61,197 nucleotides of DNA from a virus. The notes beneath the pieces are model-generated. The model was not told the DNA's origin, made no database searches, and was given only the letters and a program-made list of their open reading frames with translations. Location: positions 1 to 61,197 of the IMG/VR virus record IMGVR_UViG_3300012344_000003; one strand, written 5' to 3'. Positions 44,184 through 58,506 of this stretch are shown here, piece by piece. The translations under genes were made by a program, and so were the position numbers. Position 1 is the first letter of the stretch, and every line of letters begins with the position of its first letter.

Positions 44184-44184
44184 T

Positions 44185-44530: not shown

Positions 44531-44542
44531 CTAGGGGAAACT

Positions 44543-47152
44543 ATGTCATTATATGATGAAGTATATGGGCTTAAGTATAAAGCTGCTGAAGATGCAGCTA
44601 GCCTTCTGCAAGCTGCTATGAAGAACCAGCTGAATGTTGGGTTCAACAGCAAAGAGGAGCTTGAGCAGTGGGCACATGACCATCACCTTGATAAAGTCCT
44701 GTTCAGCAATATGTCTCATCAGTTTATGTGCATAAGCCATAAAGGTGAGATTATGCTTCCCAAGCAGTTTGAGAACTATTATAAGAACCTCCTCTTTTAT
44801 GAGGAGAAGCATGGCAGTAAGGTGTCCAGTGTCGGCTGGCATCCTGACGGCTTTGAGTTCTTTGATAATGCTTATATTGCTGGTGAGCAGTCTGACGGGG
44901 TACATAAGCCTCTGTACTACAGAGACTATACTGTACCGACAGGATTCTATTCTGAGTCAAGGGATGCATTCAACGTGGCCAAGCCTTTTCCAGTCTTTGC
45001 TCAAGAAACTGGCAGGGACACTACTCATATATACCAGTATATAGAGCATATTGCAGGGGACTGTGCTTACCACTTGCTTGCATGGCTGCGTGCAAAGCTG
45101 CTCTATCCTACAACAAAAACACAAGTAGTGCCTATTATAGTATCACGTACTCAGGGCTCTGGTAAGACGACATTTGCTGAGGTTATATGCAAAGGCCTAT
45201 TTGGCAAGGACAATGTCCTTGTATCTGACCAGTATGATTCTTCTGCAAGGTTTAATGCTGATTATGCTGACAGCTTGATAGTGTGCCTTGAGGAAAAAGA
45301 AGAAACTGATAAGCGTAATACTGCAGGTGCTTTGAAGAGCCGTGCTACTGCTACTACTATACGTAAGGAGCAGAAAGGTATCGACCCTATCTACCAGGAT
45401 TCTTATACAGATTTTATCATGACCACAAACAAGGATGTCCCTATCAAGTTTGACGGCCGTGAGGACCAGCGGAGGTTCATGATTATGGAGTCAGACCCAA
45501 ACTTCACACGCAAGACCTCAGCGCTTGCTGATGAAGTGTTCACTAAGCTCTATGGATATGACACCAATTATAACAGGAGAGGTGTCCCGTTTGTAGAGGA
45601 CCGAGAGCTCATTGCCCAGTTTAAGCATGAGCTCTTCTCAAGGGCAGACATTGCTGATGTTGAGCTCAGGAATTTTCCTAAGACAGCTGCTTATAAGAAG
45701 TGCTTCACACTTCCACGCACATCTGAGGCTACAGAGATTGAGAGCATACTCCGTGCTCTTGCTCCGTTCATCAAGGCCTCGCTTGAGCAGAAGAAGGCTG
45801 TTACGGAGATTGGGGACAGCAAGCTCACAGATATTATCCAGTACCCAGGAGCTATGCAGTATATGCCTGCTTTCAAGGAGCATGTAGCATATGTTGCTCT
45901 CTGCCGTCCACTGGTATTCTATGAGATGCAGAGCATGAAGCCTATGCCTCATTCTACAGTAGAACGCGGGATATATGATTGTGCCATGTGGCTTGCTGAA
46001 GAGTATAATATACATTTAATACCGGATATGGACCCGCTTCCAGGAGGCTTCACGAATGTTGCTGGCCGCTATAAGGTAGCAGCATGCGCCAAGTTCTCTA
46101 TTGATGACCCAAGCCTCATGGAGTATAATAATAAGGTAAAGAAGCCTAGCATGTCAGGAATGTTCAAGCAGCAATTTACTGCTCCCCGCCAGGGAAAATG
46201 CCTGCGTGTGAACAAGTATTTCAAGCCTGACGAGCATGGCTGCTTTGAGACAGTCAATGAGATGCGTCCGGGAGTAGATACACTTCAGGGTAACAAGACA
46301 GCTAATGTGCTTTATATGGACACATTCCTGCTAGAGTCTGACACTCCGACAGGGCAGCAGCTTGCTGTTGAGAAGAAGCGTGCACAGGACATTATTGACA
46401 AGTTCGGTGAGGGATATGAAGTGCAGGCCAGTGAGCTTTATAAAGAGCGCCTTGAGTATGCACTTGAAGAGAGTAAGAAACTCTTTAATGAGGGCAAAGT
46501 GCTTCGTGTTGTATACTCCGGTGCAAAGTCATATCATCTACTTGTACGTGTTGAGGATGCTCCGAAGAATATTGAAGAGTATAGGTGGCTGCATGCTTAC
46601 TTGAGTACTACTATTTCTGACAAGCTTATATTTGATGACAGCACTTCTGACCCTGCACGTCTGACACGTAGTCCAATTACTCTGGACAGGGTCTCGTCTG
46701 CGTATAACTTGCTTGTCATGGGTGAGCAGAAGCTAATATGCGGAAACCCTACCCATATTTACAAGATTGACTGGCGGCCAATCTATGAGCAGTGGCTTGG
46801 GCGGCCGTTGAAAAAGTATGAGCAGAAGCAAGGAAAGCCTCTGTATCCGACAAGGCCTGAGTACAAGGAGGCTCTTGAAGCTATTATCTCTGGTGAGTTC
46901 TGGTCAAGCAGCAAGTTTGATGGACAGCGCCAGCAGCTTTTCTTTCCTGCCTATAGGCTACTGAGAGTACTGGGCTACTCTCATACTGAGGCATGGGAAA
47001 ATGTTATTGAGCCTCATCTGTCAGACTACAAGAAGCAGAATGAGATTGTGTATTGGAAGAGCAGAAAGGACTCTGCTATCATTACGAAGATAGATAGGGA
47101 GATAGACGAGTATAATGAGCAGTGGGAGGAAAAACAAGATGCCAATGCCTGA
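44543..47152 (+). CDS. Primase/helicase-like replication protein (D5/VirE-type P-loop NTPase)
   Basis: 869 aa; Walker A SRTQGSGKTT, Walker B LIVCLEE, RRFMIME arginine motif; the C-terminal RVVYSGAKSYHLLVRVED is reminiscent of a prim-pol SGxGxH motif. Confidence 0.7.
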   Translation: MSLYDEVYGLKYKAAEDAASLLQAAMKNQLNVGFNSKEELEQWAHDHHLDKVLFSNMSHQFMCISHKGEIMLPKQFENYYKNLLFYEEKHGSKVSSVGWHPDGFEFFDNAYIAGEQSDGVHKPLYYRDYTVPTGFYSESRDAFNVAKPFPVFAQETGRDTTHIYQYIEHIAGDCAYHLLAWLRAKLLYPTTKTQVVPIIVSRTQGSGKTTFAEVICKGLFGKDNVLVSDQYDSSARFNADYADSLIVCLEEKEETDKRNTAGALKSRATATTIRKEQKGIDPIYQDSYTDFIMTTNKDVPIKFDGREDQRRFMIMESDPNFTRKTSALADEVFTKLYGYDTNYNRRGVPFVEDRELIAQFKHELFSRADIADVELRNFPKTAAYKKCFTLPRTSEATEIESILRALAPFIKASLEQKKAVTEIGDSKLTDIIQYPGAMQYMPAFKEHVAYVALCRPLVFYEMQSMKPMPHSTVERGIYDCAMWLAEEYNIHLIPDMDPLPGGFTNVAGRYKVAACAKFSIDDPSLMEYNNKVKKPSMSGMFKQQFTAPRQGKCLRVNKYFKPDEHGCFETVNEMRPGVDTLQGNKTANVLYMDTFLLESDTPTGQQLAVEKKRAQDIIDKFGEGYEVQASELYKERLEYALEESKKLFNEGKVLRVVYSGAKSYHLLVRVEDAPKNIEEYRWLHAYLSTTISDKLIFDDSTSDPARLTRSPITLDRVSSAYNLLVMGEQKLICGNPTHIYKIDWRPIYEQWLGRPLKKYEQKQGKPLYPTRPEYKEALEAIISGEFWSSSKFDGQRQQLFFPAYRLLRVLGYSHTEAWENVIEPHLSDYKKQNEIVYWKSRKDSAIITKIDREIDEYNEQWEEKQDANA

Positions 47153-47663
47153 GAAGCTGGATGACCCTTTATGGGAGTATATTATCAATTCGAAGCTTGC
47201 TCCGTATGTCCCGTATATGAGGGAGTTTTGGAGCAATATTGAGGAGATTCCAGTATGCTCTACTGGTGTCTTTCCGTTCCCGGAGGTTGAGGGTGCTCCT
47301 CCTGGCATGATGTACCGCGTGACAAACACACCTGTGCGCTCTCCTATTAAAAATATACAGGTGTTCCCGTTTGTGCCGACTGCTTACCTGCAGATTACAA
47401 ACGTAGCAGGGGGAGCACATAAAATGGTGCAACGTGTCCTTGGAAGGCGTGACTTTACTATTGAGGAGTTTACTCTGATAGAGAAGTCGAACCTGCCTTC
47501 CACGTATAACCAGGGACAGTTCGTGGCGTTCGTTCCGACAGAAATGCTGCATAATACTTCTGTACTCGGAAAATGGTGCTACCTGACACATGATGAGATG
47601 GTAGCACTATGCCAGGGCTTTGTCCATTCACGTGTCAAAGAGAAGCTGATAAAATATATTTAA
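47139..47663 (+). CDS. Hypothetical protein
   Basis: 174 aa from ATG 47139 (GGGAGG upstream), overlapping the end of the primase gene. Confidence 0.55.
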   Translation: MPMPEKLDDPLWEYIINSKLAPYVPYMREFWSNIEEIPVCSTGVFPFPEVEGAPPGMMYRVTNTPVRSPIKNIQVFPFVPTAYLQITNVAGGAHKMVQRVLGRRDFTIEEFTLIEKSNLPSTYNQGQFVAFVPTEMLHNTSVLGKWCYLTHDEMVALCQGFVHSRVKEKLIKYI

Positions 47664-47761
47664 TAAAAAATTAAAAAACAACGTAAAACGTTGTACTATT
47701 AATATGTCAACGCAGCTGCAAAGCTGCTTGATATAAATACATTTATTTATGGAGGCAGTAT

Positions 47762-48517
47762 ATGAACACTGCAAAAACACCTACTGCAGGTGCACAGGAA
47801 ATTGAGACAGAAGACTTGAGCTTCTTGGACGGAATGGCTGGTCAGGGCTTTGAAGAGATGGGAGCAAACACGACAAGCATTGCTTACTTGTCTTTGGTGC
47901 AGCCTGATTCAGGAGCAGAAGATGCTGACAACCCAGCTGGTACTTGGCGCAATTCTGCGACAGGACGTAATTATGGAAATGATGTCAAAGTCATTGTCCT
48001 TGGCTTCCGCACTATCTGGTCAGAACGTGAGGCAGACCCTCCTTTCCGCACAGTAGGACGCTATCCAGTTAATGGTATCCAGGTTGAGCTCAGACAGCCT
48101 CCGAAAGGAAAAAGAGGCTACCCAAAGATGATTAACCCAGAATCAGGTAATGAAGTACAGGAGCTCTTTGTTTATGCTGTTACTCTGCCTGACTTCCCTG
48201 AAGATGGAATACTCTACTTAAACCCAACTGTTGGAAGCATGAAGACTGCAAAATCATGGAATAGCCAGCTTAAAGGCCAGCTTCTTCCTAATGGTGTGCA
48301 GGCTCCTATTTTCGCGTTCCAGTGGGTGCTTATTGCTGGACTTGTTCCAAATCCTCAGCAGCCAAGCAAAGAAGTTGCAAAATTCACAAAGGTCATGCGT
48401 GATGCTATTGTAAACAAAGAGCTCTTTACTGAGCATGTGCAGCCAGTGCTCTCTGTAACAAAGCAGGACCTCCTCATGATTACTCAGAACCTTGATTCTG
48501 ATGACGATGAAGAATAG
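47762..48517 (+). CDS. Hypothetical protein with an acidic C-terminal tail (possible ssDNA-binding or annealing protein)
   Basis: 251 aa, GGAGG SD, ends DSDDDEE; sits next to the SSB; the function is a guess. Confidence 0.5.
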   Translation: MNTAKTPTAGAQEIETEDLSFLDGMAGQGFEEMGANTTSIAYLSLVQPDSGAEDADNPAGTWRNSATGRNYGNDVKVIVLGFRTIWSEREADPPFRTVGRYPVNGIQVELRQPPKGKRGYPKMINPESGNEVQELFVYAVTLPDFPEDGILYLNPTVGSMKTAKSWNSQLKGQLLPNGVQAPIFAFQWVLIAGLVPNPQQPSKEVAKFTKVMRDAIVNKELFTEHVQPVLSVTKQDLLMITQNLDSDDDEE

Positions 48518-48544
48518 TCCCGCGGATTTGTGAACAAACTATCA

Positions 48545-48568
48545 GCACTCTGGAGCTTTCCAGAGTGC
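48545..48568 (+). terminator. Strong 10-bp hairpin GCACTCTGGA-GCTT-TCCAGAGTGC
   Basis: Perfect stem checked by hand; the downstream T-run is poor, so it may act in RNA processing or stability rather than termination. Confidence 0.4.
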
Positions 48569-48587
48569 ATACTTATTAGAGGTGAAT

Positions 48588-48935
48588 ATGAATGTACCTG
48601 TTAGCCAGAATAACTTTAAGCAGTATCATACTGAAGAGAAAGCTAAAGTTGAAATTGGAAGAAAAGATGATAAAGGCAAGGCGCGCTTTGACCTTGTTGA
48701 GCCGGAGTTTGAAGAGGTAGTAGCAGAAGTGCTTACTTATGGAGCAGACAAATATGCTCCTAACTCATGGCAGCATGTTGAAGACGCTAAGAACCGTTAT
48801 TATGCTTCTTTACGCCGGCATATAAATGCTTACCGTAAAGGTGAGAAGATTGACCCAGAATCTGGCCTCCCTCATCTCGCGCATGCTGCCTGCAATATAA
48901 TGTTCCTGATGCATTTTGAACAGGAGGAAGAATAA
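48588..48935 (+). CDS. Small all-alpha NTP-pyrophosphohydrolase-like protein (DUF5664 / dATP-dGTP diphosphohydrolase N-terminal-like)
   Basis: 115 aa from ATG 48588; KDDKGKARFDLVEP, GADKYAPNSW and RRHINAYRKGEKIDPESGLPHLAHAACNIMFL match my memory of this phage family. Confidence 0.45.
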   Translation: MNVPVSQNNFKQYHTEEKAKVEIGRKDDKGKARFDLVEPEFEEVVAEVLTYGADKYAPNSWQHVEDAKNRYYASLRRHINAYRKGEKIDPESGLPHLAHAACNIMFLMHFEQEEE

Positions 48936-49324
48936 TGGCAGACTTGAATAGCTTTGCTTTTACAGGCCGCTGTACTCAGGATGCTACTATCCGTGAGATT
49001 GCTTCAGGCAAAAAAATACTTACAGTAAATGTTGCTGTAAACACAGGTTTCGGCGACTATAAGAAGACCCTGTTTATCAAGGCCCAGATGTGGGGTGAGC
49101 GCGGCGAGAAAATTGTCAGCTACCTTAAGAAAGGCCAGATGATAGCAGGGCAGGGTGAAATGTGCCGGTCTGAATGGACAAGTAAAGAGGGCAAGCAGTA
49201 TGTTGACTTTGTAGTAGATGTCAATAATATACAACTGCTCTCTTCAGGCTGCAGCTGCAAGAAAGATGAGCCTCCGCCTTCGGACAGTGAGCTCGACCCT
49301 GAAAGTGGCTGCCCTACGTTCTAG
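48935..49324 (+). CDS. ssb: Single-stranded DNA-binding protein (OB fold)
   Basis: 129 aa; N-terminus of FTGRCTQDATIRE type, VDFVVDVNNIQLL, acidic tail ending PTF. Confidence 0.8.
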   Translation: MADLNSFAFTGRCTQDATIREIASGKKILTVNVAVNTGFGDYKKTLFIKAQMWGERGEKIVSYLKKGQMIAGQGEMCRSEWTSKEGKQYVDFVVDVNNIQLLSSGCSCKKDEPPPSDSELDPESGCPTF

Positions 49325-49357
49325 TGCTTTAAGCCATTATATATCCTCAGCTGGCTA

Positions 49358-49385
49358 GCCCCTCCAGTATCAGGGGCCTTTTCTG
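49358..49385 (+). terminator. Rho-independent terminator
   Basis: GCCCCT (49358-49363) pairs with AGGGGC (49372-49377), followed by CTTTTCTG. Confidence 0.55.
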
Positions 49386-49398
49386 TATAGGAGCAGTT

Positions 49399-49695
49399 AT
49401 GAGTGAGAAGAAGAATGAGATTGCTGAGGCAATTCTTGAGAAGGGGCAGGAGCCAATTGGTGACGGGCATGACTCTGAGCGCATCTGGCATAATGGCCGG
49501 TACATTGAGTACTACCGCAAGGTCATGGCTGATGCCATAGGAATTGACCCGGATGACATTCCTGATGATATGTATATACACCATATTGATGGGGACCGCA
49601 TGAACAATGATATTGACAACCTCATGCTCTGCACAAAAAAGGCACATGAGAACCTTGAGATGATTCTTGACCCACACCACTATGACCCGGAGTAA
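49399..49695 (+). CDS. HNH endonuclease
   Basis: 98 aa; IHHIDGDRMNNDIDNLMLCTKKAHENLE. Confidence 0.75.
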   Translation: MSEKKNEIAEAILEKGQEPIGDGHDSERIWHNGRYIEYYRKVMADAIGIDPDDIPDDMYIHHIDGDRMNNDIDNLMLCTKKAHENLEMILDPHHYDPE

Positions 49696-49698
49696 GAT

Positions 49699-50016
49699 AT
49701 GAAAATTAAATGCTTTAAGCAGTCAAGTACTTCTGTCTATGAGCAGGAGTATGATATTGACCTATGTAACCTGGACCTCTGCTACATCAGGGATTCACAT
49801 ATGTCCTTGTTCTACAAGGACTGTCTCAATAAGAATGTCAGGCTGGAAGTGCTGTCATCAGATACCAGGGACGCTATAAAAGCTATTGGCACTAACAGGA
49901 TAACAGGCCTGTACGATGCTGCATTTACTGTAGTACATTCAAATTCTATATTTGAGATTGGGCAAATCTTCTATCCTCCAAGGGAGAAGCTTTTGAAAGA
50001 ATTCGGTATGGAGTAA
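49699..50016 (+). CDS. Hypothetical protein
   Basis: 105-aa ORF with a GGAG SD. Confidence 0.55.
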   Translation: MKIKCFKQSSTSVYEQEYDIDLCNLDLCYIRDSHMSLFYKDCLNKNVRLEVLSSDTRDAIKAIGTNRITGLYDAAFTVVHSNSIFEIGQIFYPPREKLLKEFGME

Positions 50017-50019
50017 CAC

Positions 50020-51966
50020 ATGAGGCTTGTAGCAGTAGACGTTGAGACATATGACCCGAACCTCAAGACACTTGGTGACGGGTCATGCCGCGATTCAGAT
50101 TCTCCTGATGATGATGGGTCATGCCTGCTCTGTGTAGGTACTTATGACGGGCAGCGGGCCAAGGCCTACTTCCCATTCACGAGTGAATGGCAGGAGTTCC
50201 TCGATATGATGTCCGATGAGAACATTGACAAAGTGTACCATAATGGTATATATGACCTTGCATGGCTCCATTGTGGCTATGATGTTGAGATTAAGGGGCT
50301 CCAGCATGACACTATGACACGCATGACATACATAGATGAGTATGCTGACCTTGACCTTGACTCATGCTGCCGTTATTTCAGGCTACCTGGTAAGAACAAG
50401 GCTGAGACTATCGAAGCATGGTATGAGCAGCATAAGGAAGACTTCATGAAAGCAGCTGCTATCATGGGCAGCAAGGTGAAGAAGACAGATGACTTATGGA
50501 AGCACTCTAAGTTCTTGTGGGATAATTTTAAAGAGTTCCGTGACAAGATGGTTGAGTATAACCTACAGGACTGCCGGGCTACGTGGAACCTGTACCAGGC
50601 GCAGGAACCTAAGATAAAAGGTGTCTATGAACCTTATATGGTAGATGTCAGGCTTACTCCGCTTATCATTGAGATGAAGAAGCGGGGAGTGCTCATTGAC
50701 CGCAAAACCATGTCTGAGCTGACAGCTACAATCGAGCGTGACCTGCTGGAGAAGGAGACAATCCTCACTGACCAGTATGGCATAACACTTGAGATGGTCA
50801 ACTCATCAAAGCAGCTGGGAAAACGCCTAAATGAGATGGGTATACACTCACCTGTCCTCAATAAGACAGGTGCTGAGTCATGGGGAGCAGATGCACTTGC
50901 ACGTCTCATACACCATCCGATGATTCCACTCATTGAGGAGGTCAAGGGCTACAAGAAGCTTCTGGATACGTACATGAAGGGAGGTATGGCTGATGCTATC
51001 CTTTCAGATGGGCGCATACACTGCACATTCTCTCCGAACAAGCGTGAGGACGGAGGTACTGTCACGGGGCGCTTTGCATGCTCAAAGCCTAACCTGCAAC
51101 AGATTCCCGCACGTGATAAGCAGGTCGGACATTCATATGGGCAGGCTATGCGTGCCCTATTCATACCTGAAGAAGGCTGCATGATGTCTGCTCTGGACTA
51201 CTCTCAGATTGAATACCTGCTTCTTGCACACTTTGCTGTAGGCCCGCAGGCTGAGTGGTTCCGTGGGCAGGCTAATGCAGGTGTAGATTTCCATACTGTT
51301 GCTATGGCTGCGACTGGCATCACTACGAGGTCGGTTGTCAAGACATTCAATTATGGTGTTATCTATGGAATGGGCTGGAAGACTGCTATGGAGAAGAATT
51401 ATATGCTCTTCGAGAAGCTTGCCCAGGAGCACGGTGTCTCAATTGAGCAGTATACACAGGATGTATATAATAACTACCATGCAAAGCTGCCTGTCATACG
51501 TGAGACAATGAAAGTTGTGCAGAATATCTCTAAGATGCAGGGATTTGTCAAGACAATAGGCGGGCGCTATCAGCATAAGCCTAAAGCTGTCTATGACCCT
51601 GCTACAGGGAAGATGAATGACTTTATTTACAAGATGCTCAACAAGCTTATACAGGGCTCAGCAGCAGACATACTTAAGTTTGCACTACTCAAGGCATACC
51701 AGTCGGGTGTCTTTGACGTGCTGAAGATGCACCTGACAGTCCATGATGAAAATGTTGTATCTGTGCCTTATAACAGGCTCGGCGCTGAGGCTAATGGTGA
51801 GCTCAAGAGGATTATGGATATGTCATTCCATGAGAAGCTCCGTGTCCCGATGAAGGCTGCCTGTGAGCTGGGGCCTAACTGGGGTTACTGGGACCATGAT
51901 ATATGGGACGATATGCAGAAAGGTATTTTTAACCGTGCTGATGAATGCTGGTGGTATAAAAAATGA
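50020..51966 (+). CDS. Family-A DNA polymerase with a 3'-5' exonuclease domain
   Basis: 648 aa. Exo motifs VDVET, HNGIYDL, YNLQDC. Pol motif A DYSQIEYLL, motif B KTFNYGVIYGMG, motif C VHDENV. Confidence 0.9.
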   Translation: MRLVAVDVETYDPNLKTLGDGSCRDSDSPDDDGSCLLCVGTYDGQRAKAYFPFTSEWQEFLDMMSDENIDKVYHNGIYDLAWLHCGYDVEIKGLQHDTMTRMTYIDEYADLDLDSCCRYFRLPGKNKAETIEAWYEQHKEDFMKAAAIMGSKVKKTDDLWKHSKFLWDNFKEFRDKMVEYNLQDCRATWNLYQAQEPKIKGVYEPYMVDVRLTPLIIEMKKRGVLIDRKTMSELTATIERDLLEKETILTDQYGITLEMVNSSKQLGKRLNEMGIHSPVLNKTGAESWGADALARLIHHPMIPLIEEVKGYKKLLDTYMKGGMADAILSDGRIHCTFSPNKREDGGTVTGRFACSKPNLQQIPARDKQVGHSYGQAMRALFIPEEGCMMSALDYSQIEYLLLAHFAVGPQAEWFRGQANAGVDFHTVAMAATGITTRSVVKTFNYGVIYGMGWKTAMEKNYMLFEKLAQEHGVSIEQYTQDVYNNYHAKLPVIRETMKVVQNISKMQGFVKTIGGRYQHKPKAVYDPATGKMNDFIYKMLNKLIQGSAADILKFALLKAYQSGVFDVLKMHLTVHDENVVSVPYNRLGAEANGELKRIMDMSFHEKLRVPMKAACELGPNWGYWDHDIWDDMQKGIFNRADECWWYKK

Positions 51967-52055
51967 AAGATGATTTTTATTATATGCTACTTATGCTCCT
52001 GCTTTATATAATAGCAGGTGTCAATATATTTTTAGCTTTTATATAGGAGTAAAAG

Positions 52056-52526
52056 ATGAAGAAAACTAAAGAATGTGAGGTGTATCTTTTTGGCCAGGAG
52101 CAGAAAGATACATTTGGACAGGGAAAAGTAAGACATATTGGCATAAAGCCAGTGTATAAGACAAAAGGAGCTGCAGCAGCAGATATAGCAACACCACTTG
52201 AAGTACATGTACCTCCACATAAGACAGTCAATATTGACCTTTATGTGGGCTTTGACATCCCTGCTGGCTACTGCATAAAGCTCTATCCACGGTCCTCACT
52301 ACTTGTGAAGCGCGGCCTGATACAGCCGGTGTCAATTATTGACCAGGATTTCTCTGGCAACAAGATTCATGCCCCTGTGCATAACCTTACTGATGAAGAG
52401 GTTGTCCTTGAGGCTGGTGAGCGTATCTGCCAGGCAATGCTTGAGCCTGTTATTGACTGCTCTGACTGGGACCATGAGAACAATACACGTGGAGCTGCCG
52501 GCTTTGGCACTACAGGAACATGCTGA
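52056..52526 (+). CDS. dut: dUTPase (trimeric type)
   Basis: 156 aa with all five motifs: GAAAADI, PRSS, IIDQDFSG, GERICQ, RGAAGFGTTG. Confidence 0.85.
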   Translation: MKKTKECEVYLFGQEQKDTFGQGKVRHIGIKPVYKTKGAAAADIATPLEVHVPPHKTVNIDLYVGFDIPAGYCIKLYPRSSLLVKRGLIQPVSIIDQDFSGNKIHAPVHNLTDEEVVLEAGERICQAMLEPVIDCSDWDHENNTRGAAGFGTTGTC

Positions 52527-53263
52527 TGAACTTAAATACTAGGATTTACAGGCAGGCACTGCAGAAGATAGCAGACTATCCATGCAAAAAGAACCCGCAC
52601 GGCATTACTTTCGAGTATCTGGCATTCAGGACAGAGTTTGAGCCGGAGGGCCATATTGCAGGGAGCTCTGAGAAGTACATAAAGAACGAACTAGACTGGT
52701 ACCTGTCGCAGGACAGGAACATCAAGGGGCACCCAGGGATTGAGAGCAACAAAGTATGGCAGTCATGTGCTGCTGCTGATGGCTCAGTGAACAGCAATTA
52801 TGGCTGGTGTATCTTCAGCAAGGAGAACTATGAGCAATTTGAGATGGCCTGCAGGAGTATTGAGAAAGACCCAAGCACGAAGCAGGCTGTCATGGTATAC
52901 ACGAGACCAGCTATAAATATAGAATGGAATGACGGTGAGCATGCTGAGCATGATATGGTCTGTACAATCTATGTAAACCTGCTGCTCCGTGAAGGCAAGC
53001 TCATATATATCGTGCACATGCGGAGTAATGATATATGGTATGGTCTACGCAATGACCTTGCATGGCACCAGTTTGTAATGAAGCGGGTAGTTGAATGGTT
53101 GAATGGGCATGATATAAAGTGCACCCCGCTCAAGATAATATGGAATGCTGACTCAATGCACCTGTATGAGAGGAACATTGAGGACGTGAAGAAGTGGCTT
53201 GAGGCGAACGACGGCTTTGATGAGCCTTTTGAAGACACTCTGCTGTCAAGCATGCTAAAATAA
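52520..53263 (+). CDS. Deoxycytidylate (dCMP) hydroxymethylase-like enzyme (ThyA superfamily, T4 gp42-like)
   Basis: 247 aa; NELDWY, VNSNYGWCIF, catalytic Cys in DMVCT, HMRSNDIWYGLRNDLAWHQF (Asp after RN), IIWNADSMHLYERN; compared with T4 gp42 from memory. Confidence 0.75.
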   Translation: MLMNLNTRIYRQALQKIADYPCKKNPHGITFEYLAFRTEFEPEGHIAGSSEKYIKNELDWYLSQDRNIKGHPGIESNKVWQSCAAADGSVNSNYGWCIFSKENYEQFEMACRSIEKDPSTKQAVMVYTRPAINIEWNDGEHAEHDMVCTIYVNLLLREGKLIYIVHMRSNDIWYGLRNDLAWHQFVMKRVVEWLNGHDIKCTPLKIIWNADSMHLYERNIEDVKKWLEANDGFDEPFEDTLLSSMLK

Positions 53264-53268
53264 AAACA

Positions 53269-53290
53269 GGGCCTCCATTGCTGGAGGCCC
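53269..53290. terminator. Shared convergent terminator hairpin GGGCCTCCA-TTGC-TGGAGGCCC
   Basis: 9-bp perfect stem in the 37-nt gap where the two arms meet (stops at 53263 and 53301). Confidence 0.7.
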
Positions 53291-53300
53291 TTCACTATGC

Positions 53301-53765
53301 CTAGAAATTCTTTTTGGCTATCCGTAAAACGAGGTCCTGCCACCTCTCACGGTCTACATAATACTCAGGGCACTTTTTTCCTGTCCAGTCATAATGCCTT
53401 ATAACTGGGAGGGCAGGGAGTGTAGCAATCAGCTCCTTGAGGGTATCAATGCTCTTCTCACTGAACTGTCCTTCCTTGTTATATGGGATAACTTCAATAC
53501 CAATGCTTGACTCGTTGCCTGCCTTGTTCCCGCAGTGCCATGCTACCTTGTTCAGTGGCCAGCATTGCAAGACCTCATCATCTTTTACAATGAAATGTGC
53601 AGACGCTTCACCTGGTGATACACACCAGTAGTCACGCACATCAGCAGGTGTCTGTCCTGGGAAAGGCCCTGTCCAGTGCACTGTTATAGTGTCTGGCCAT
53701 TTCTTGAACCATAGCTTTGTGTCGCAGCTGTTCCCATCTGGTATATAGTTAATCCTTAGCTTCAT
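53301..53765 (-). CDS. N-acetylmuramoyl-L-alanine amidase endolysin (Amidase_2/PGRP type)
   Basis: 154 aa; TVHWTG, SAHFIV, WHCGNKAGNESSIGIEV, RHYDWTGKKCP. Confidence 0.85.
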   Translation of the reverse strand: MKLRINYIPDGNSCDTKLWFKKWPDTITVHWTGPFPGQTPADVRDYWCVSPGEASAHFIVKDDEVLQCWPLNKVAWHCGNKAGNESSIGIEVIPYNKEGQFSEKSIDTLKELIATLPALPVIRHYDWTGKKCPEYYVDRERWQDLVLRIAKKNF

Positions 53766-54433
53766 ATTCCTGCGGCCTCCAGCCGCTGTTTGATAGCAGC
53801 AATCTCACTTTTGTTCTGGCAAGGCTGTCCGCTACTTCCATGTTCAAGTGCATCAAGCCTTGAGAAGATTTCTGCAAATGGACCTGACTTATTATTCCAC
53901 TGCTCAGTAATACTGATAAGCTGCTGGTTTATGGTAACTTCACCACTTTCAGGAAGCTCTTTGACAATATCTTTTATCTTCTCTTCAAGCTCCTTGGTAT
54001 CATAGCCAAGTGCTTTGAGCTTGTCAATCTCAGCATAGAGAGTGCTCTCATCAGCCTTTGTTCCTGCAAGAGCAGTAACATCTGCACGTAAGTTGAGCAT
54101 ATCTGCTTTTATTGAAGCCACATCTGTAGAAGCAATGACTTCAAGCATCTTATTCTCAAGGTTAGTACAGCGCTTTTTGAGGTTCACAATAGCCTGCTGC
54201 ACTTCCGTGTCGTCATAGTCTGTTCCGGGGTAAGTGATTCCCTGCAAATCTTTGACACTCTGCTTGAGGTCATTGATATTGCTCCTGATTTCTGTCAGGT
54301 CAGCTTCAGGAACGCCACCATTCTCAAGAATAGTTATGCGTTCTATGAGCTGCTTGACGTCTGTCTGTTTTTTTTTGTAGTAGGCTTTCCAGTCCCCATC
54401 GCCACCTGCTGCTGAATACTGCGGATATGCCAT
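53762..54433 (-). CDS. Coiled-coil hypothetical protein (lysis/late cassette)
   Basis: 223-aa ORF with a 4-nt overlap with the amidase start. Confidence 0.55.
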   Translation of the reverse strand: MAYPQYSAAGGDGDWKAYYKKKQTDVKQLIERITILENGGVPEADLTEIRSNINDLKQSVKDLQGITYPGTDYDDTEVQQAIVNLKKRCTNLENKMLEVIASTDVASIKADMLNLRADVTALAGTKADESTLYAEIDKLKALGYDTKELEEKIKDIVKELPESGEVTINQQLISITEQWNNKSGPFAEIFSRLDALEHGSSGQPCQNKSEIAAIKQRLEAAGI

Positions 54434-54434
54434 G

Positions 54435-55067
54435 TTATTTGTCCTTTAGCAGTCCAAGTGCGTCACCTTTTACAAGCCATGAGATGCCGAATGCTACAAG
54501 CATGATGAGCTCAGCGACAAATGTCTTTGAAGGTGACTTGACTGGGAGCACCATCCAGAGCATAGGTACAAGCATAGCTATTGCACACGCTACATAAATC
54601 TTGTTGCGCATTTTCTTCTGCTTTGTCATCTCGCCATTATGTTGTGTAAACAGGAAAGCGCTGTTGAATGCTAGTAATATAAAGAAGCAGCAGGCACTTA
54701 TATTATGTATAACTGCTGATACTTTAGCAGGCAGCATGAAGAAGCCTACATAGTCCCTCGCTAGTACACAGTTACATGGGAATAGCACAATAAGCAGGCC
54801 GAACACACCAGAAATAGTAGTAACCAGGTTGTCAACCTTTCCATATCCATCATAGGTCATGAGCACAATTGATGCTGCAGTGAGCACAGCAGCAAGAGCA
54901 GGTGTCATGTAGTATGTCGCACTGATTGACAATTTGCTCCAGAATCCTTCTGGAACTGGGTAATGGAGCCGGTACAGGCCCGCGCCAACTGCTGCCAGGA
55001 TAGGGAGCAGCATTCCAAGCAGTCCGCAGATATTGCGGATTCTCTTGTACATCTTCTTTTCGTTCAT
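54435..55067 (-). CDS. Polytopic membrane protein (about 6 TM)
   Basis: 210 aa made of successive hydrophobic helices; lies inside the lysis cassette. Confidence 0.6.
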   Translation of the reverse strand: MNEKKMYKRIRNICGLLGMLLPILAAVGAGLYRLHYPVPEGFWSKLSISATYYMTPALAAVLTAASIVLMTYDGYGKVDNLVTTISGVFGLLIVLFPCNCVLARDYVGFFMLPAKVSAVIHNISACCFFILLAFNSAFLFTQHNGEMTKQKKMRNKIYVACAIAMLVPMLWMVLPVKSPSKTFVAELIMLVAFGISWLVKGDALGLLKDK

Positions 55068-55282
55068 CTTGATTCCTCCGTCTTGTTTCTTGTTATGAAC
55101 TTGTCGAGCATGATGTTCATGTCGATTGTCCCCGCTACGATGCCATAAGCTGTGAGGTAGCAGATTATTATTCCGCTTGTCTCAGCACCTGGCAGAAGTC
55201 CTTTCCACTTATAATAGAAAGTCACAACGAGTGCAGCGCTAAGTAGCACTTTGCTCAGTTTTGAAATAATCTTTGCTGTCAT
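55064..55282 (-). CDS. Holin-like protein (2 TM, charged C-terminus)
   Basis: 72 aa; VLLSAALVVTFYY and GIIICYLTAYGIVAG helices with tail RNKTEESR; ATGA overlap with the upstream ORF. Confidence 0.5.
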   Translation of the reverse strand: MTAKIISKLSKVLLSAALVVTFYYKWKGLLPGAETSGIIICYLTAYGIVAGTIDMNIMLDKFITRNKTEESR

Positions 55283-55740
55283 AGTAGTATATCAAGCCAC
55301 CGTGGCAGCCTGATTCCTTTAAGGTAGAATGCATATCCGACAACTGTTGTGCAGATGCGGATAATCACGATACATAGTAGTATGTTAAGGGTCCTGTTCT
55401 TGTCCTTCAGTTTCTGCTCGTATTTGCTTATAGTCAGATATGAACTGTTCAACGACTCGTTGATACTCGTCAAAGAGATTGATAACATCTTCGACTGTTG
55501 TTTCAGTTTTTGCTGCTCTAAGTCTGAGGTCTTCAAGCTGGCTGATAGTTCTATCAGCTGTTGCTTCATAAATTCGGACTCTGTCTTCAAGTCTTGTAAT
55601 TTGCTCTTGATGAGCGAGGATGTCTGATTGAGCACCTGCTCCCTGTCTTGGCATGCTTGAGCATCCTGTGCAAATACAGGCACTAGCAAGCAGAAAGACA
55701 AAAAAAGCAGGGCACTTTGTAATACTAGCTTTTTGCACAT
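55279..55740 (-). CDS. Membrane/coiled-coil protein (N-terminal signal-like helix plus C-terminal TM), frame A of a dual-frame region
   Basis: 153 aa; AGGAGG 4 nt upstream of the ATG; its stop is coupled (ATGA) to the holin-like gene. Confidence 0.5.
   Translation of the reverse strand: MCKKLVLQSALLFLSFCLLVPVFAQDAQACQDREQVLNQTSSLIKSKLQDLKTESEFMKQQLIELSASLKTSDLEQQKLKQQSKMLSISLTSINESLNSSYLTISKYEQKLKDKNRTLNILLCIVIIRICTTVVGYAFYLKGIRLPRWLDILL
55385..55738 (-). CDS. Alternative-frame ORF: lipoprotein-like coiled-coil protein (frame B), embedded in 55279-55740
   Basis: 117 aa from GTG 55738 (same AGGAGG, 6 nt upstream). KCPAFFVFLLASACICTGCSS looks like a signal/lipobox, followed by a varied, charge-rich (E/D/R/T) helical sequence. 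The ORF track starts it at ATG 55774. Confidence 0.35.
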   Translation of the reverse strand: MQKASITKCPAFFVFLLASACICTGCSSMPRQGAGAQSDILAHQEQITRLEDRVRIYEATADRTISQLEDLRLRAAKTETTVEDVINLFDEYQRVVEQFISDYKQIRAETEGQEQDP

Positions 55741-56114
55741 AGTGCCTCCTTTTTAATCTGCTGGATATATACATCTATATATGAGTTGCCGCCTTTGGCT
55801 TTATACTCATCATACAGTTTCAGCTTTGCATGGAAATCTGTCTTGTCAGACATAATCTGCAGGCGTATAGTTGCGAGCTCAATAGCATGTATAGTGTCCA
55901 GCATTATTTTTGTACTGACCTGCAGCTCAGCGACATCCTTCTTGAGGCTGTCAATCTGTGCTGAGTCAATAAAGCTGCGGTTGAACTTAATCCCATCCTT
56001 GCCTATGCTTCCAATCTCACCACGCCGCATCATAGCAGTTATGGTGTAGATTACAAGGAGCAGGCATATAAGCAGGACAGGACTGCTATTAAGTTGTGTT
56101 AATATATCATTCAT
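55725..56114 (-). CDS. N-terminally anchored membrane protein
   Basis: 129 aa; TM helix PVLLICLLLVIYTITAMM; first gene of the lysis cassette. Confidence 0.55.
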   Translation of the reverse strand: MNDILTQLNSSPVLLICLLLVIYTITAMMRRGEIGSIGKDGIKFNRSFIDSAQIDSLKKDVAELQVSTKIMLDTIHAIELATIRLQIMSDKTDFHAKLKLYDEYKAKGGNSYIDVYIQQIKKEALCAKS

Positions 56115-58506
56115 AATCTTCTACATAGTTGCTTAATGTGAGACATTTTTCACATGCTTCTGCTTTGTAATATTTTGCAGGGTTGCTGAAGTCAAATTCA
56201 TTTATGTCAACTTCTGTTCCTGCAAAGTAGTTACAGCATGGAAGGACCTTGCCTGTTATGCAGTCAATCTGTATTGCGCCAAATTTTTTAGGGCACTGAC
56301 TACGTGCTGCAATAAAAGCTTTTTGTTGTATAATATTAATAAGCTTTGGTGAAGTCCAGTCTATAAGCGCATATTCTCTTACAAACTGTGCCAACTTTAC
56401 AAGCTCCTCTTCACCAAGGTCAAAATCAGCATTTCCTGTATTCATGCACGGGATAAGCTGGAAGCTGTTTTTAACAAGTTTTTTATTGCTCTCAAGCCAC
56501 TGCTCTATTTCTGGCAGCTGGTTTTTAGTAGCAACATATACTGTGAGGTCTGGCTTTTTGAGCTCCTTTATGAGCTCTGCTGCCTGCTCCAGTGTCATGG
56601 CATGCACATTCTTTACAATATTAGGATATGTATAAAGAGGAGCTTCTTTGTCATAACCATTTGTAAATAGCATAATCATCGGGTACTCTTTAAGGCGCTT
56701 GATAATCTTAATCTGTGTCTCATATGAGAGCAGTGTAGGCTCACCGCCAAGGAGCTGTGGGAACACTTTTACTCCGTAGGCTTCTTCAGCTTTTGTGAGG
56801 TACCTGTCAAAGTTCTCATAGATAGTATCTTCATCAATATTCTCAGCCTTAAGCTGGTTGCAGTAGGCACAGTTCTTGTTGCATGTCCTGTTGAGTGAGA
56901 ATGTAACATATCTTGTAGATTTTTGTGTATATTTTGATATTATTGGTTTATTGATATTCACTACGATGTCTTTCAACGTATCTTGCAGTCTGTGTATAAA
57001 TACTTCTTTAATTTTATATATAGTAGTATATCTTTTAGTATCTAAAAGAAGCATATCTTCTGTCCCAGGATTATTGCCTAGTGTTAATATACAGTACTTA
57101 TCAAGCATATATATCAAGCGCTCGAGCCATGTCTTGTCAAGCGCCATTATCTCATCAAGGATTTTGTTGTTTATAATCAGGTTGCCTTGTCGCTCAAAAA
57201 TGTCGCAGGGGCTTGTCTCAGAGATGTCATTGAACATGAGCACATCAAACTCAGTGCCCTCAAGGTCAAGCCCTTCTGGGACTTTGCCTATTACTGTGAA
57301 TCTGTCTTTTGAATACTGCTCAAGCGGCTTGCGTATGCGGGACTCTTTGAACATGTCTGTTACTATGTTGTATATACTGTTATTAAAAGTCTCTATGATT
57401 GTGTCTACAGCTGAGCAGCTATTAAGCATGTGTATATAAGCATTGTCATAGCTATTATCTAGTAGTATTTCCTGCATAAGTATATCTAAAGTCTTATTTG
57501 AATAGTAATTAGGAAGTCCCTGTATATATCTATAGAGCTTAGGCAGTACATATTTTGTAATAGTATATTTCCAATTTTCACTGGCATATATCTCATGGCT
57601 GAGCGAGTTCTCAGTGCTCAAGAAATATTTGAACTTAGGCTCATTATGAAAATAGAAACTATATTTTGCGTCACAAGCTACATCTGTCAAGAAAGCAGTG
57701 TCCTCGCCAGAAGAATTACAGTCAGGATTGAACTGATAATCCTTCATCACGTCACTATGACAGATGAAAGAGCCAGTGCCAGATATACGTGAACCAAATT
57801 TGATAAATATAGGATTATTAAACTGTGCATATAGCTTATTATTATTAGTAAGATTTATTACATCCATTTTACAGCGCCGTATAGCAGCATTAACTTTATT
57901 AGGCTCATCACCTTTAAGGAGCACTTCGAAATAATCAGGATAAAGCTGGTCATCAGCATCAAGGAACATAAGCCACTCACTGTCAGCAAGAGTAGCAAGG
58001 TAGTTACGTGCTTCTTCAACGCAGAGGCGTTCATGCTCTCTGCAGTCAATAATACTGCTCATTGATGAGAGCTCATCTTTAAGTGCAATTGAGTCTTCAT
58101 CCATGAGTAGTATTATAATCTTGTCTGGGAGCAGAGTATTTGCAAGGACACTTTCTACAGTGTCCTTTATATATTTAGCCTTTCCATAGCATGGGACAAG
58201 CACAGTAAGCTTCTGGCCTTCCTTATACTTATATCTATCTCCGTATATACAGGTTCCTGTTGGTAAATATACATAAGAAATAATAGAATCTAAAAGAAAC
58301 TTGACTATATTATAGCGCTCTAAATTTTTTGAAATATCAGCTACTTCTTTTTTAGGGTAGTCTCTGAACTGATATTCCCATTCAGAGCCATTCCACCGAC
58401 AGCTCTCACCTTCTCTAAGAGGCTTATGGGGAGCCTCAATGCCTGCTATCTCTTCACAGAAGCTTCTGCCTGTGATATTACCGTCTTTGTCTATAATATA
58501 TTTCAT
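56107..58506 (-). CDS. Fusion protein: GT2-type glycosyltransferase plus radical-SAM/SPASM domain
   Basis: 799 aa. GT-A core LTVLVPCYGKAKYIKDTVESVLANT..LLMDEDS..FLDADDQLYP. Radical-SAM motif CNKNCAYC (nt ~56860-56885) plus GGEPTLL. Cys-rich tail CPKKFGAIQIDCITGKVLPCCNYF..ACEKC. Confidence 0.75.
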   Translation of the reverse strand: MKYIIDKDGNITGRSFCEEIAGIEAPHKPLREGESCRWNGSEWEYQFRDYPKKEVADISKNLERYNIVKFLLDSIISYVYLPTGTCIYGDRYKYKEGQKLTVLVPCYGKAKYIKDTVESVLANTLLPDKIIILLMDEDSIALKDELSSMSSIIDCREHERLCVEEARNYLATLADSEWLMFLDADDQLYPDYFEVLLKGDEPNKVNAAIRRCKMDVINLTNNNKLYAQFNNPIFIKFGSRISGTGSFICHSDVMKDYQFNPDCNSSGEDTAFLTDVACDAKYSFYFHNEPKFKYFLSTENSLSHEIYASENWKYTITKYVLPKLYRYIQGLPNYYSNKTLDILMQEILLDNSYDNAYIHMLNSCSAVDTIIETFNNSIYNIVTDMFKESRIRKPLEQYSKDRFTVIGKVPEGLDLEGTEFDVLMFNDISETSPCDIFERQGNLIINNKILDEIMALDKTWLERLIYMLDKYCILTLGNNPGTEDMLLLDTKRYTTIYKIKEVFIHRLQDTLKDIVVNINKPIISKYTQKSTRYVTFSLNRTCNKNCAYCNQLKAENIDEDTIYENFDRYLTKAEEAYGVKVFPQLLGGEPTLLSYETQIKIIKRLKEYPMIMLFTNGYDKEAPLYTYPNIVKNVHAMTLEQAAELIKELKKPDLTVYVATKNQLPEIEQWLESNKKLVKNSFQLIPCMNTGNADFDLGEEELVKLAQFVREYALIDWTSPKLINIIQQKAFIAARSQCPKKFGAIQIDCITGKVLPCCNYFAGTEVDINEFDFSNPAKYYKAEACEKCLTLSNYVEDYE

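Follow-up and report, generated by a model that had tools for sequence, protein, structure and literature searches.

The window analysed here, a stretch of 61,197 nucleotides, is the complete genome of an uncultured phage (its ends overlap by 85 nt) whose hosts are probably gut bacteria. At the end of its plus (replication) arm, the gene for a family A DNA polymerase is followed by an AT-rich intergenic region and a two-gene unit, in which an ORF of the trimeric Dut family overlaps one predicted to encode a dCMP hydroxymethylase; a GC-rich hairpin, which has the form of a terminator on the minus strand, closes the arm (Table 1). The intergenic region holds an inverted repeat (CCTGCT...AGCAGG), an AGGAG ribosome binding site 8 nt before ATG 52056, and a promoter-like site at 52003-52030, the latter a weak 9/12 consensus match that is not above shuffled expectation. 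A second small pyrophosphohydrolase gene, of the DUF5664 family, lies 3.6 kb upstream of the pair. No tRNAs were found in the genome.

Table 1. Features of the predicted cytosine hydroxymethylation locus and its surroundings.
Feature	Coordinates	Strand	Basis or context
DUF5664 (PF18909) MazG-like dNTP pyrophosphohydrolase, 117 aa	48582..48935	+	Pfam, PHROGs
Family A DNA polymerase with 3'-5' exonuclease domain	50020..51966	+	PF00476 1.5e-58, PF01612 2.1e-5
Intergenic region of 89 nt, AT-rich, preceding the gene pair	51967..52055	+	Read from the sequence
Trimeric Dut-family dNTP pyrophosphatase, 156 aa, five motifs	52056..52526	+	PF00692, phrog_135
Predicted dCMP hydroxymethylase (5hm-dCMP synthase), 247 aa	52520..53263	+	PDB phmmer, Pfam, PHROGs, alignment, AF2 model
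GC-rich hairpin, 10-bp stem	53268..53291		Separates the hydroxymethylase gene from the convergent endolysin gene

Megablast of positions 44000-56000 against deposited phages found no close DNA relatives, and the phage collection searched contains no cultured representative of the group. One conserved ORF (42146-42817) matches Clostridium phage phiCTP1, Enterocloster phages and a rodent-gut virus, and the Dut/TS-like module is absent from phiCTP1 and the rodent-gut virus. The abundant, uncultured ~60-kb PolA phages of this lineage probably infect gut Firmicutes. Metagenomic relatives of 58-62 kb retain the Dut/TS-like pair together with DUF5664: the two genes of the pair are adjacent or overlapping in L001, L003, L005, L012 and L013, and every relative examined has its DUF5664 gene at the corresponding place. 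Samples such as ERZ27287290 and ERZ28615214 contain this contig or relatives of it.

The comparisons of sequence and of the predicted structure confirmed that the product of the second gene is a TS-fold protein nearer to the T4 dCMP hydroxymethylase than to ThyA. Its best match in the PDB is T4 gp42 (1b49, E 2.6e-43 over residues 46-229 by phmmer), far ahead of MilA (E 2e-4) and the best ThyA (E 1.3e-4), and it matches PF00303 above the Pfam cut-off (1.3e-10) and phrog_160 (2.7e-34). Its identity to gp42 is 31-40% (31% to T2 gp42), compared with 17% to RB69 gp48. None of the NCBIfam ThyA equivalog models gives it more than 36 bits, where their cut-offs run from 174.55 to 405 bits, and the C-terminal extension of ThyA is missing, as it is in gp42. 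An AF2 model of good quality (pLDDT 92.8, pTM 0.89) retrieved the T4 enzyme first in Foldseek (E 6e-22, TM 0.77-0.80), followed by MilA (PDB 5B6D, E 3.5e-14, TM 0.75) and then ThyA. The resemblance to gp42 had originally been drawn motif by motif; all the motifs are present in the HMMER alignment to 1b49, in which NELDWY pairs with RELEWY, VNSNYGWCIFSKENYEQFEMAC with INSNYGWAIWSEDNYAQYDMC, DMVCT with DFMCT, HMRSNDIWYGLRNDLAWHQF with NMRSNDVVFGFRNDYAWQKY and IIWNADSMHLYERN with IIWNVGSLHVYSRH.

The substrate and the product of this enzyme can be predicted from a small number of positions, which we compared in an alignment of the query, T2 gp42, RB69 gp48 and E. coli ThyA, with residue counts taken over 120 retrieved homologs. 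The residue that follows the conserved RN, the position that discriminates cytosine from uracil substrates (gp42 Asp179, ThyA Asn177), is indeed an Asp, carries the number 179 as in gp42, and is Asp in 120/120 homologs. The catalytic nucleophile Cys148 (gp42 Cys148, ThyA Cys146) is likewise kept in 120/120. At the position of the hydrophobic Leu143 of ThyA, the query has Asp145 as gp42 does (Asp in 119/120), and at ThyA position 169 it has Asp171 (Asp in 120/120). The four positions thus read D145, C148, D171 and D179 in both the query and T2 gp42, E160, C163, N186 and D194 in RB69 gp48, a 5hoC synthase, and L143, C146, D169 and N177 in E. coli ThyA. Thr149, Arg168 and Ser169 are also shared with gp42 under the same numbers, and Glu57, Trp80, Tyr94, His214 and Tyr216 correspond to its Glu60, Trp82, Tyr96, His216 and Tyr218; E57, R168, S169, H214 and Y216 are invariant across the clade. 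The query departs from gp42 at the phosphate-binding pair contributed by the partner subunit, where Arg123/Arg124 of gp42 are replaced by Lys121/Gln122; the first position of the pair remains basic in the query. At position 126, 66 of the homologs have R and 54 have K, and position 127 is mostly Q. According to a recent study (PMC13326640), N177D denotes a cytosine substrate, an acidic residue at L143, which gives water access, denotes a non-methyl product, and D169N marks the flavin-dependent 5-hydroxy-dCMP synthases; for L143 and D169 these rules are empirical, correlations rather than proven determinants. Judged by its alignment, the predicted enzyme has every residue that the published code assigns to a 5hm-dCMP synthase, and the reading as a cytosine-specific dCMP hydroxymethylase is supported, as a prediction, by sequence and model.

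The hydroxymethylase ORF starts either at ATG 52520, which gives a 7-nt overlap with the Dut-family ORF, or at ATG 52526, which gives a 1-nt overlap (TGATG) and is the start in the 90%-identical relative P0001. The two plus-strand ORFs meet at ...ACATGCTGATGAAC... and are translationally coupled. The assignment of the upstream gene as a five-motif dUTPase held up at the level of the family: it matches PF00692 at 6.3e-18 (65.2 bits against a cut-off of 22) and phrog_135 at 5.1e-32, its motifs I-V all align with those of E. coli Dut, and its best PDB match is a chlorella virus dUTPase (8e-14). It falls under the NCBIfam dut cut-offs (82.2 against 102.55 bits and 62.6 against 103). Gln replaces Asn84 and the uracil hairpin contains a one-residue insertion, and these deviations of the base pocket are kept across the clade. 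The protein is a candidate dUTPase and/or dCTP-clearing enzyme. The small pyrophosphohydrolase-like gene further upstream, which had been proposed to supply dCMP or deplete dCTP, belongs to PF18909 (6.7e-35, 119.5 bits against a cut-off of 27) and phrog_801 (5.3e-45), and may alternatively start at ATG 48588 to give 115 aa; a search of solved structures by sequence returned no match. Experiments have shown that proteins of PF18909 and of the phage Dut family hydrolyse dNTPs to dNMPs, with substrate ranges that have been re-specialised, and the DUF5664 enzyme tested acts on dATP, dUTP and dGTP (PMC12884076). The enzyme of this phage is a candidate for converting a dNTP, perhaps dCTP, to its dNMP, and could plausibly feed or clear the dC pool.

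The genome encodes two non-orthologous dNTP pyrophosphatases, of the Dut family and of DUF5664. Pfam and PHROGs scans across the whole genome, on those ORFs of 90 aa or more that were taken to be genes, found no match to the gp56-family dCTPase, no GT-B or T4 glucosyltransferase family, no NDP-sugar biosynthesis or arabinose genes, and no recognisable ThyA, dCMP deaminase or td/frd/cd genes. No dNMP kinase was recognisable in the complete genome by Pfam, PHROGs, NCBIfam or two P-loop scans. In the six-frame P-loop scan, Walker A motifs in plausible genes were confined to an SNF2 helicase and a primase-helicase on the plus strand and an unannotated 965-aa ORF on the minus strand (23322-26219); a stricter scan added another large, unannotated minus-strand ORF (12556-14058). 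None of these four resembles an NMP kinase. A ThyX-like ORF (42062/42146-42817) matches Thy1 of Pfam in 16/22 members, always below threshold; the ORF has no RHR motif, gave no PDB match in a profile search, and yielded an AF2 model too poor for use (pLDDT 53.7). The original prediction had recorded no dNMP kinase, no T4-type glucosyltransferase and a single glycosyltransferase, the GT2-radical SAM fusion at 56107-58506, and all three statements stand.

Taken together, the sequence and model comparisons and the conserved gene context make it likely that the product is a dCMP hydroxymethylase that depends on folate, as T4 gp42 does, and that the virion DNA would contain 5hmC in place of much or all of its cytosine. 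Early in infection, the Dut-family enzyme, the DUF5664 enzyme or both would convert dCTP to dCMP, some of which might also come from the breakdown of host DNA. The hydroxymethylase would then use methylene-tetrahydrofolate to convert dCMP to 5hm-dCMP, which would be raised to 5hm-dCTP by host kinases and incorporated by the phage PolA, yielding virion DNA that would resist most type II restriction enzymes. Host kinases are invoked since no phage dNMP kinase could be recognised in the complete genome. Several points count against this reading: the missing kinase, the want of a proven dCTPase (the Dut-family gene may encode an ordinary dUTPase), the correlative nature of the L143 and D169 rules, and the changed phosphate-binding pair. 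It is even conceivable, if somewhat unlikely, that the Dut-family protein has been re-specialised as a dCTP pyrophosphatase that hands dCMP to the hydroxymethylase, at the heart of a minimal, kinase-less hmC pathway with a swappable decoration slot that is empty here and holds a carbamoyltransferase in some relatives or a Hen1-like O-methyltransferase in others (L001 and L003). Such a dCTPase would be the cytosine counterpart of DutZ of the Z-genome phages and a new specificity of the trimeric dUTPase fold, and the Hen1-like enzyme of some relatives could generate 5-methoxymethylcytosine, a base that would be undescribed.

We consider it unlikely, but more probable than the other alternatives, that 5hm-dCMP is made and that the DNA is either partly substituted or decorated by an unrecognised enzyme, such as the GT2-radical SAM fusion. 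T4 and RB69 need a dNMP kinase for efficient incorporation, and no more than trace product is reported in its absence (PMC13326640); the lack of a kinase and of a proven dCTPase would favour incomplete replacement here. Undecorated 5hmC is also a target of type IV enzymes, McrBC and MspJI among them (PMC7653180), many early genes have no assignable function, the GT2 domain of the fusion has an intact DAD motif, and candidate decorating enzymes do occur in the relatives, where a carbamoyltransferase or a methyltransferase-like gene occupies a variable slot. In L005 a carbamoyltransferase (PF02543 and PF16861) directly follows the DUF5664 gene, a pairing also found on C-modified metagenomic contigs, where this enzyme makes 5-carbamoyloxymethylcytosine from 5hmC and where a MazG-like pyrophosphohydrolase co-occurs (MetaGPA; PMC8670742). 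In the phage studied here, the slot is empty, the DUF5664 stop and the SSB start sharing base 48935, and the slot genes of the relatives have no tblastn match in the window. The fusion, for its part, is confined to this phage and its nearest relatives: L001, L003 and L005 have the hydroxymethylase but lack the fusion, and this absence from the wider clade suggests that it probably lies outside the pathway. Its location in the late/lysis arm likewise makes a decorating role unlikely, and among solved structures it is nearest to GT2 enzymes of the polysaccharide type. Since the variable slot holds no gene here, the modified base is most likely undecorated 5hmC.

The remaining alternatives concern the reaction itself. 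The enzyme might be a dCMP methyltransferase like that of Xanthomonas phage Xp12, having kept the reductive half-reaction, so that the DNA would contain 5-methylcytosine. The rule that ties position 143 to the product is correlative, which leaves this reading some room. In the alignment with T2 gp42, RB69 gp48 and E. coli ThyA, however, position 143 of the query is Asp (D145), as in T4 gp42 and MilA, rather than a bulky hydrophobic residue. The similarity to gp42 (E 1e-43) and the pairing of a relative's ortholog with a carbamoyltransferase, an enzyme that needs a hydroxyl acceptor (PMC8670742), both argue against it, and we regard it as very unlikely. A flavin-dependent 5-hydroxy-dCMP synthase of the RB69 gp48 / DLP3 gp80 type, giving DNA with 5-hydroxycytosine, possibly glycosylated, is less probable still. 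These synthases are TS homologs with N177D and L143D/E that were mis-annotated as dCMP hydroxymethylases until 2026 (PMC13326640), and the phage does encode one glycosyltransferase; against this, the diagnostic D169N is absent from the query and from all 120 homologs, Glu57 and Trp80 are kept where RB69 gp48 has Phe75 and Tyr93, the enzyme is closer to T2 gp42 than to RB69 gp48, and the scans described above found neither NDP-sugar biosynthesis genes nor GT-B DNA glycosyltransferases. Finally, although the coupled upstream gene belongs to the dUTPase family, whose canonical product is dUMP, and database annotators often name such genes thymidylate synthase, an ordinary thymidylate synthase or dUMP hydroxymethylase, running from dUTP to dUMP to dTMP or hm-dUMP and leaving cytosine unmodified, is scarcely credible for an enzyme with Asp rather than Asn at its specificity position, no ThyA C-terminal extension, a failure of the ThyA equivalog models by a very large margin, and cytosine hydroxymethylases ahead of every ThyA by sequence and by fold.

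The genome contains no GATC at all, compared with about 127 expected. This total avoidance shows that the phage also relies on evasion at the level of sequence, and it could be held to count against modification, since it would be needless if the modification protected GATC. We rejected this argument on comparison with two modified phages: RB69, which is fully C-modified, has 9 GATC in a control region where 58 are expected, and DpnII cuts the 5mC-substituted DNA of Xp12 completely (PMC7653180). With enzyme sensitivities taken from the same source, palindromes that are cut on 5hmC DNA are more depleted in the phage than those blocked by 5hmC, a borderline difference (Mann-Whitney p 0.03-0.05, n = 9 vs 51) that favours the 5hmC reading weakly and on which we place no reliance.

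Returning to the 5hmC reading, the predictions from sequence and structure suggest that the phage DNA probably holds modified cytosine, a known anti-restriction strategy that appears here in a new lineage, served by a reduced set of genes. If so, cytosine hydroxymethylation extends beyond the large T-even myoviruses of Proteobacteria to ~60-kb PolA phages, in a pathway reduced to the hydroxymethylase and two small pyrophosphatases. Such genomes would be vulnerable to 5hmC-dependent type IV systems while resisting most type II enzymes, and metagenomic libraries may mis-call or under-represent them. The clade would offer a natural series of base diversification, from undecorated to carbamoylated and possibly O-methylated, and a clean test of whether full replacement can run on host kinases. 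Neither the enzyme family nor its logic is new, and what is gained is a further member with some context rather than a new principle.

Among known systems, the closest is the gp42 of T4 and T2 (PDB 1B49, 1B5D, 6A9A), which shares its fold, its catalytic and specificity residues and almost its length (246 aa, against 247 in the query). The setting is different: a 61-kb PolA phage as opposed to a 169-kb T-even genome, a gene that overlaps one of the trimeric Dut family, and none of the gp1 kinase, gp56-type dCTPase, alpha/beta-glucosyltransferase or td/frd/cd genes of T4. The TS homologs of the MetaGPA study (eLife 2021, PMC8670742) also come from uncultured phages, have Asp177 and Thr147, and stand alongside a pyrophosphohydrolase of the MazG superfamily, and a carbamoyltransferase lies in the same module in the relative L005; the query differs in having PF18909 instead of PF01503 and no carbamoyltransferase in the window. 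RB69 gp48 and DLP3 gp80 (NAR 2026, PMC13326640) have the TS fold, the dCMP substrate, N177D and an acidic residue at 143 in common with the query, but have Asn where it has Asp at ThyA position 169, and the query keeps the equivalents of Glu58 and Trp80. The CMP hydroxymethylase MilA of Streptomyces (PDB 5B6D) is another cytosine-specific TS-fold hydroxymethylase, although its sequence similarity to the query is marginal, it prefers a ribonucleotide and it serves antibiotic biosynthesis. The Z-genome phages (DutZ, DUF5664; NAR 2026, PMC12884076) encode PurZ, which the query lacks, and rewrite A rather than C, but they share with it the combination of a trimeric Dut-family protein and a DUF5664 protein in a genome in which one DNA base is, or in our case is predicted to be, rewritten.

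Our analysis indicates that the final gene in the plus-strand arm encodes, by every testable criterion, a predicted T4-type 5hm-dCMP synthase. A search of every PDB sequence aligned residues 46-229 of the protein with three T4 dCMP hydroxymethylase entries (E 2.6e-43 to 3.1e-41), while the best thymidylate synthase (TS) and MilA scored E 1.3e-4 and 1.9e-4, respectively. Pfam assigns it to Thymidylat_synt (1.3e-10) and PHROGs to phrog_160 (2.7e-34), and no NCBIfam ThyA equivalog model scores it above 36 bits, where the cut-offs range from 174.55 to 405 bits. In deposited phage genomes it is matched best by the gp42 orthologs of T4-like phages of Aeromonas and Escherichia (38-42% identity), and all five motif matches to T4 gp42 that the original prediction had listed are seen in the HMMER alignment. 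An AlphaFold2 model built with 52 homologs as input is confident (pLDDT 92.8, pTM 0.89), and Foldseek, run with this model against the PDB, returns T4 dCH first (E 6e-22, TM 0.77-0.80), MilA next and ThyA enzymes third.

The RB69 gp42 ortholog and other phage TS homologs were described in 2026 as flavin-dependent 5-hydroxy-dCMP synthases, together with an active-site code in E. coli ThyA numbering in which C146 is the nucleophile, N177D denotes a cytosine substrate, L143D/E a non-methyl product, and D169N is diagnostic of 5-hydroxy-dCMP synthases (PMC13326640). We aligned the protein with T2 gp42, RB69 gp48 and E. coli ThyA, taken from annotated records. Its residues D145, C148, T149, D171 and D179 are identical, also in number, in T2 gp42, and fall in the columns of E160, C163, T164, N186 and D194 of RB69 gp48 and of L143, C146, H147, D169 and N177 of ThyA; the discriminator Asp on which a cytosine substrate had been predicted is thus D179, as in T2 gp42. 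Asp occupies ThyA positions 169 and 177 in 120 of 120 homologs and position 143 in 119 of them. E57, W80, Y94, R168, S169, H214 and Y216 are also retained, the Glu and the Trp having no equivalents in RB69 gp48 in this alignment. Where gp42 has the partner-subunit pair Arg123/Arg124, the protein has Lys121/Gln122; this is its sole departure from gp42, and a variation common to about half of the clade.

The alternative that the enzyme is a dCMP methylase is disfavoured, as Asp145 speaks against it by the position-143 rule, which is correlative. A 5-hydroxy-dCMP synthase of the RB69 gp48 type is rejected because D171 is kept and the D169N change is absent, a dUMP hydroxymethylase is rejected on the testable residues, and a ThyA is dismissed by Asp179 in place of Asn and by equivalog scores far under the cut-offs. 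The protein is very likely a cytosine-C5-modifying TS homolog using dCMP, and its product is likely 5hm-dCMP.

Both this gene and its dUTPase-family (Dut-like) partner were found as originally described. At their junction (...ACATGCTGATGAAC...), the hydroxymethylase has two candidate starts, ATG 52520, which gives a 7-nt overlap with the Dut-like gene, and ATG 52526, whose A is that of the Dut-like TGA stop and which corresponds to the start used in a 90%-identical relative (P0001). Since the genes overlap at either start, they appear from the sequence to be translationally coupled whichever applies. The Dut-like ATG is preceded by an AGGAG ribosome-binding site after an AT-rich 89-nt spacer, and a GC-rich hairpin (53268-53291) lies between the hydroxymethylase and the convergent endolysin gene.

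Nucleotides 1-85 of the window are identical to the last 85 (61113-61197), and databases list this same 61,197-bp contig. Hence the assembly, circular or terminally redundant and about 61.1 kb long, is complete, and statements of absence cover the whole genome. The end junction falls within a repetitive coiled-coil gene region. The prediction that dNMP kinase and T4-type glucosyltransferase are missing holds for the complete genome, in which we also found no thymidylate kinase, ThyA, true ThyX, dCMP deaminase, DHFR, PurZ or gp56-type dCTPase. Walker A motifs in plausible genes are limited to two plus-strand helicases and two large ORFs on the minus strand that carry no annotation (23322-26219 and 12556-14058). 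Structural-arm proteins are mostly without family assignment.

Features of the genome and of the variable slot in relatives (slot genes in coordinates of their own contigs)
Feature	Position	Strand	Description
Structural and packaging arm	1 to about 28.8 kb	-	terminase at 26256-28247
2,409-aa ORF	14089-21318	-	structural arm; zero Pfam matches
Early and replication arm	29.9 to 53.3 kb	+	SNF2 helicase, DUF5906/VapE primase-helicase, Pam3 gp33/gp34-like proteins, DUF5664 pyrophosphohydrolase, SSB, HNH endonuclease, PolA, Dut-like gene, hydroxymethylase
phrog_6721 ORF	42062-42817	+	function unassigned; probable true start 42146 (= P0121, 223 aa)
Cpn10 (GroES)-like gene	44185-44466	+	small co-chaperonin; Pfam 5.8e-5; just upstream of primase-helicase
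HNH endonuclease gene	49399-49695	+	PF13392; between SSB and PolA
Dut-like ORF	52056-52526	+	156 aa; partner of hydroxymethylase
Hydroxymethylase ORF	52520-53263	+	247 aa
Late arm	53.3 to 61.2 kb	-	endolysin, membrane proteins, GT2-radical SAM fusion, Gly-rich and coiled-coil proteins
GT2-radical SAM fusion	56107-58506	-	799 aa; late/lysis arm
Gly-rich, Cys-containing protein	58524-59363	-	279 aa; adjoins GT2-radical SAM fusion
L005 slot gene 1	3288-4970		560-aa carbamoyltransferase (PF02543 + PF16861)
L005 slot gene 2	4970-5293		Tad2-like
L001 slot gene	4827-5714		about 295 aa; class-I methyltransferase motifs
L003 slot gene	5207-6097		about 295 aa; class-I methyltransferase motifs

The genome carries two genes of dNTP-pyrophosphatase families, and in the pathway that we propose either or both of the Dut-like and DUF5664 enzymes would convert dCTP to dCMP, and the hydroxymethylase dCMP to 5hm-dCMP; host kinases would then make 5hm-dCTP, to be incorporated by PolA. 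The first step has precedents, since a stand-alone DUF5664 protein converts dATP, dUTP and dGTP to monophosphates, and phage Dut-family enzymes have undergone re-specialisation, as in DutZ, which uses dATP; partial hydrolysis of dCTP is reported for the Dut of Gordonia phage Ghobes (PMC12884076). The Dut-like proteins of the clade score under the NCBIfam dut thresholds, and conserved among them are a Gln for E. coli Dut Asn84 in the base pocket and, in the uracil-recognition hairpin, a His-Ala-Pro/Phe with one inserted residue. Their base specificity may be altered, a lead that falls short of establishing dCTP specificity. Of the steps in the pathway, that of the kinase is the weakest. In an E. 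coli assay, incorporation stayed at trace level when a TS homolog was not accompanied by its kinase (PMC13326640).

At E <=1e-10, databases contain 384 homologs of the hydroxymethylase, many of them 45-90% identical and on 56-64 kb contigs. Five such genomes (L001, L003, L005, L012 and L013) have a common module, consisting of primase, a 175-182-aa ORF, Pam3 gp34-like, DUF5664, a variable slot, SSB, PolA, Dut-like and TS-like genes, the last two adjacent or overlapping in all five. The slot, flanked by the DUF5664 and SSB genes, is empty in the window, L012 and L013, and its content otherwise differs by genome. The slot protein of L001 and L003 has the Hen1 2'-O-methyltransferase as its best solved relative (E 0.002) and a Methyltransf_23 match below threshold; it could act on 5hmC by O-methylation, yielding an undescribed base. 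In MetaGPA, a TS homolog with Asp177, a carbamoyltransferase and a MazG-like pyrophosphohydrolase were associated specifically on C-modified metagenomic contigs, and the carbamoyltransferase was shown to turn 5hmC into 5-carbamoyloxymethylcytosine (PMC8670742). These results lend independent support, backed by experiment, to the idea that orthologs of the window's enzyme put a hydroxymethyl group on cytosine. The HNH endonuclease gene, which L012 and L013 have between SSB and PolA and which L001 and L003 lack there, has probably been inserted as a mobile element of the homing type; the Cpn10-like gene is kept in L013.

The deposited phage collection yielded no cultured member of this lineage. 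Another hallmark gene of the genome is carried by cultured phages of Clostridium and Enterocloster, and the endolysins are of Amidase_2 or CHAP types, which together weakly suggest Gram-positive gut bacteria as hosts. The phrog_6721 ORF, also present in Clostridium phage phiCTP1 and Enterocloster phages, is very conserved (>8,000 database homologs, 64-80% identity) and has a weak, sub-threshold Thy1 (ThyX) Pfam match in 16 of 22 members. Its invariant block, EHRKFLRQIF..DITAP..WW.EFDTY...NS.STMH, resembles a ThyX core in which another sequence takes the place of the RHR motif, as far as the sequence can tell; the structure model is of poor quality. The GT2-radical SAM fusion combines a glycosyltransferase domain with a DAD motif, a radical SAM domain with a CNKNCAYC cluster motif and a Cys-rich C-terminus of SPASM-like appearance. 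It has almost no phage homologs; of the relatives, only the closest, L012, carries it, whereas L001, L003 and L005 do not. Given this distribution and its place in the late arm, we did not count it as a pathway member, and it may act on a virion protein or glycan rather than DNA.

The genome contains no GATC at all (0 vs 127 expected under a second-order Markov model, z = -11.3), and the site is depleted in relatives (0/19 in L001, 0/49 in L005, 9/56 in L003), which points to strong selection by a host GATC-targeting system, of DpnII/MboI type or Dam-dependent, beside the predicted base modification. This avoidance is no argument against C-modification: a control region of RB69 (20000-36000) is likewise strongly GATC-poor (9 vs 58), and DpnII cuts fully 5mC-substituted Xp12 DNA at GATC; for T4gt, Dam methylation confounds the result (PMC7653180, Tables S1 and S3). 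RB69 shows this depletion despite hypermodification of all its cytosines. Genome-wide depletion is seen at the sites of EcoRV, MluCI, NdeI and DraI, enzymes that cut 5hmC DNA completely in vitro (PMC7653180 Table S1): GATATC (1 vs about 18 expected), AATT (148 vs 220), CATATG (15 vs 27) and, non-significantly, TTTAAA (1 vs 5). C-containing palindromes blocked by 5hmC are mostly at expectation, and the contrast between the two groups is borderline overall (Mann-Whitney p 0.03-0.05). We think it reasonably likely that 5hmC or a derivative replaces most C in virion DNA and, if 5hmC is present, lean slightly towards an undecorated base.

All those defining features of the gp42 family that can be tested are present in the enzyme, whereas the pathway around it differs from that of T4, with no gp1, gp56, alpha/beta-GT, td or cd. 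That phage TS homologs with Asp177 occur beyond the T-evens and are linked to 5hmC derivatives has already been published; new here is the occurrence of such an enzyme in a lineage without a cultured representative in the phage collection.
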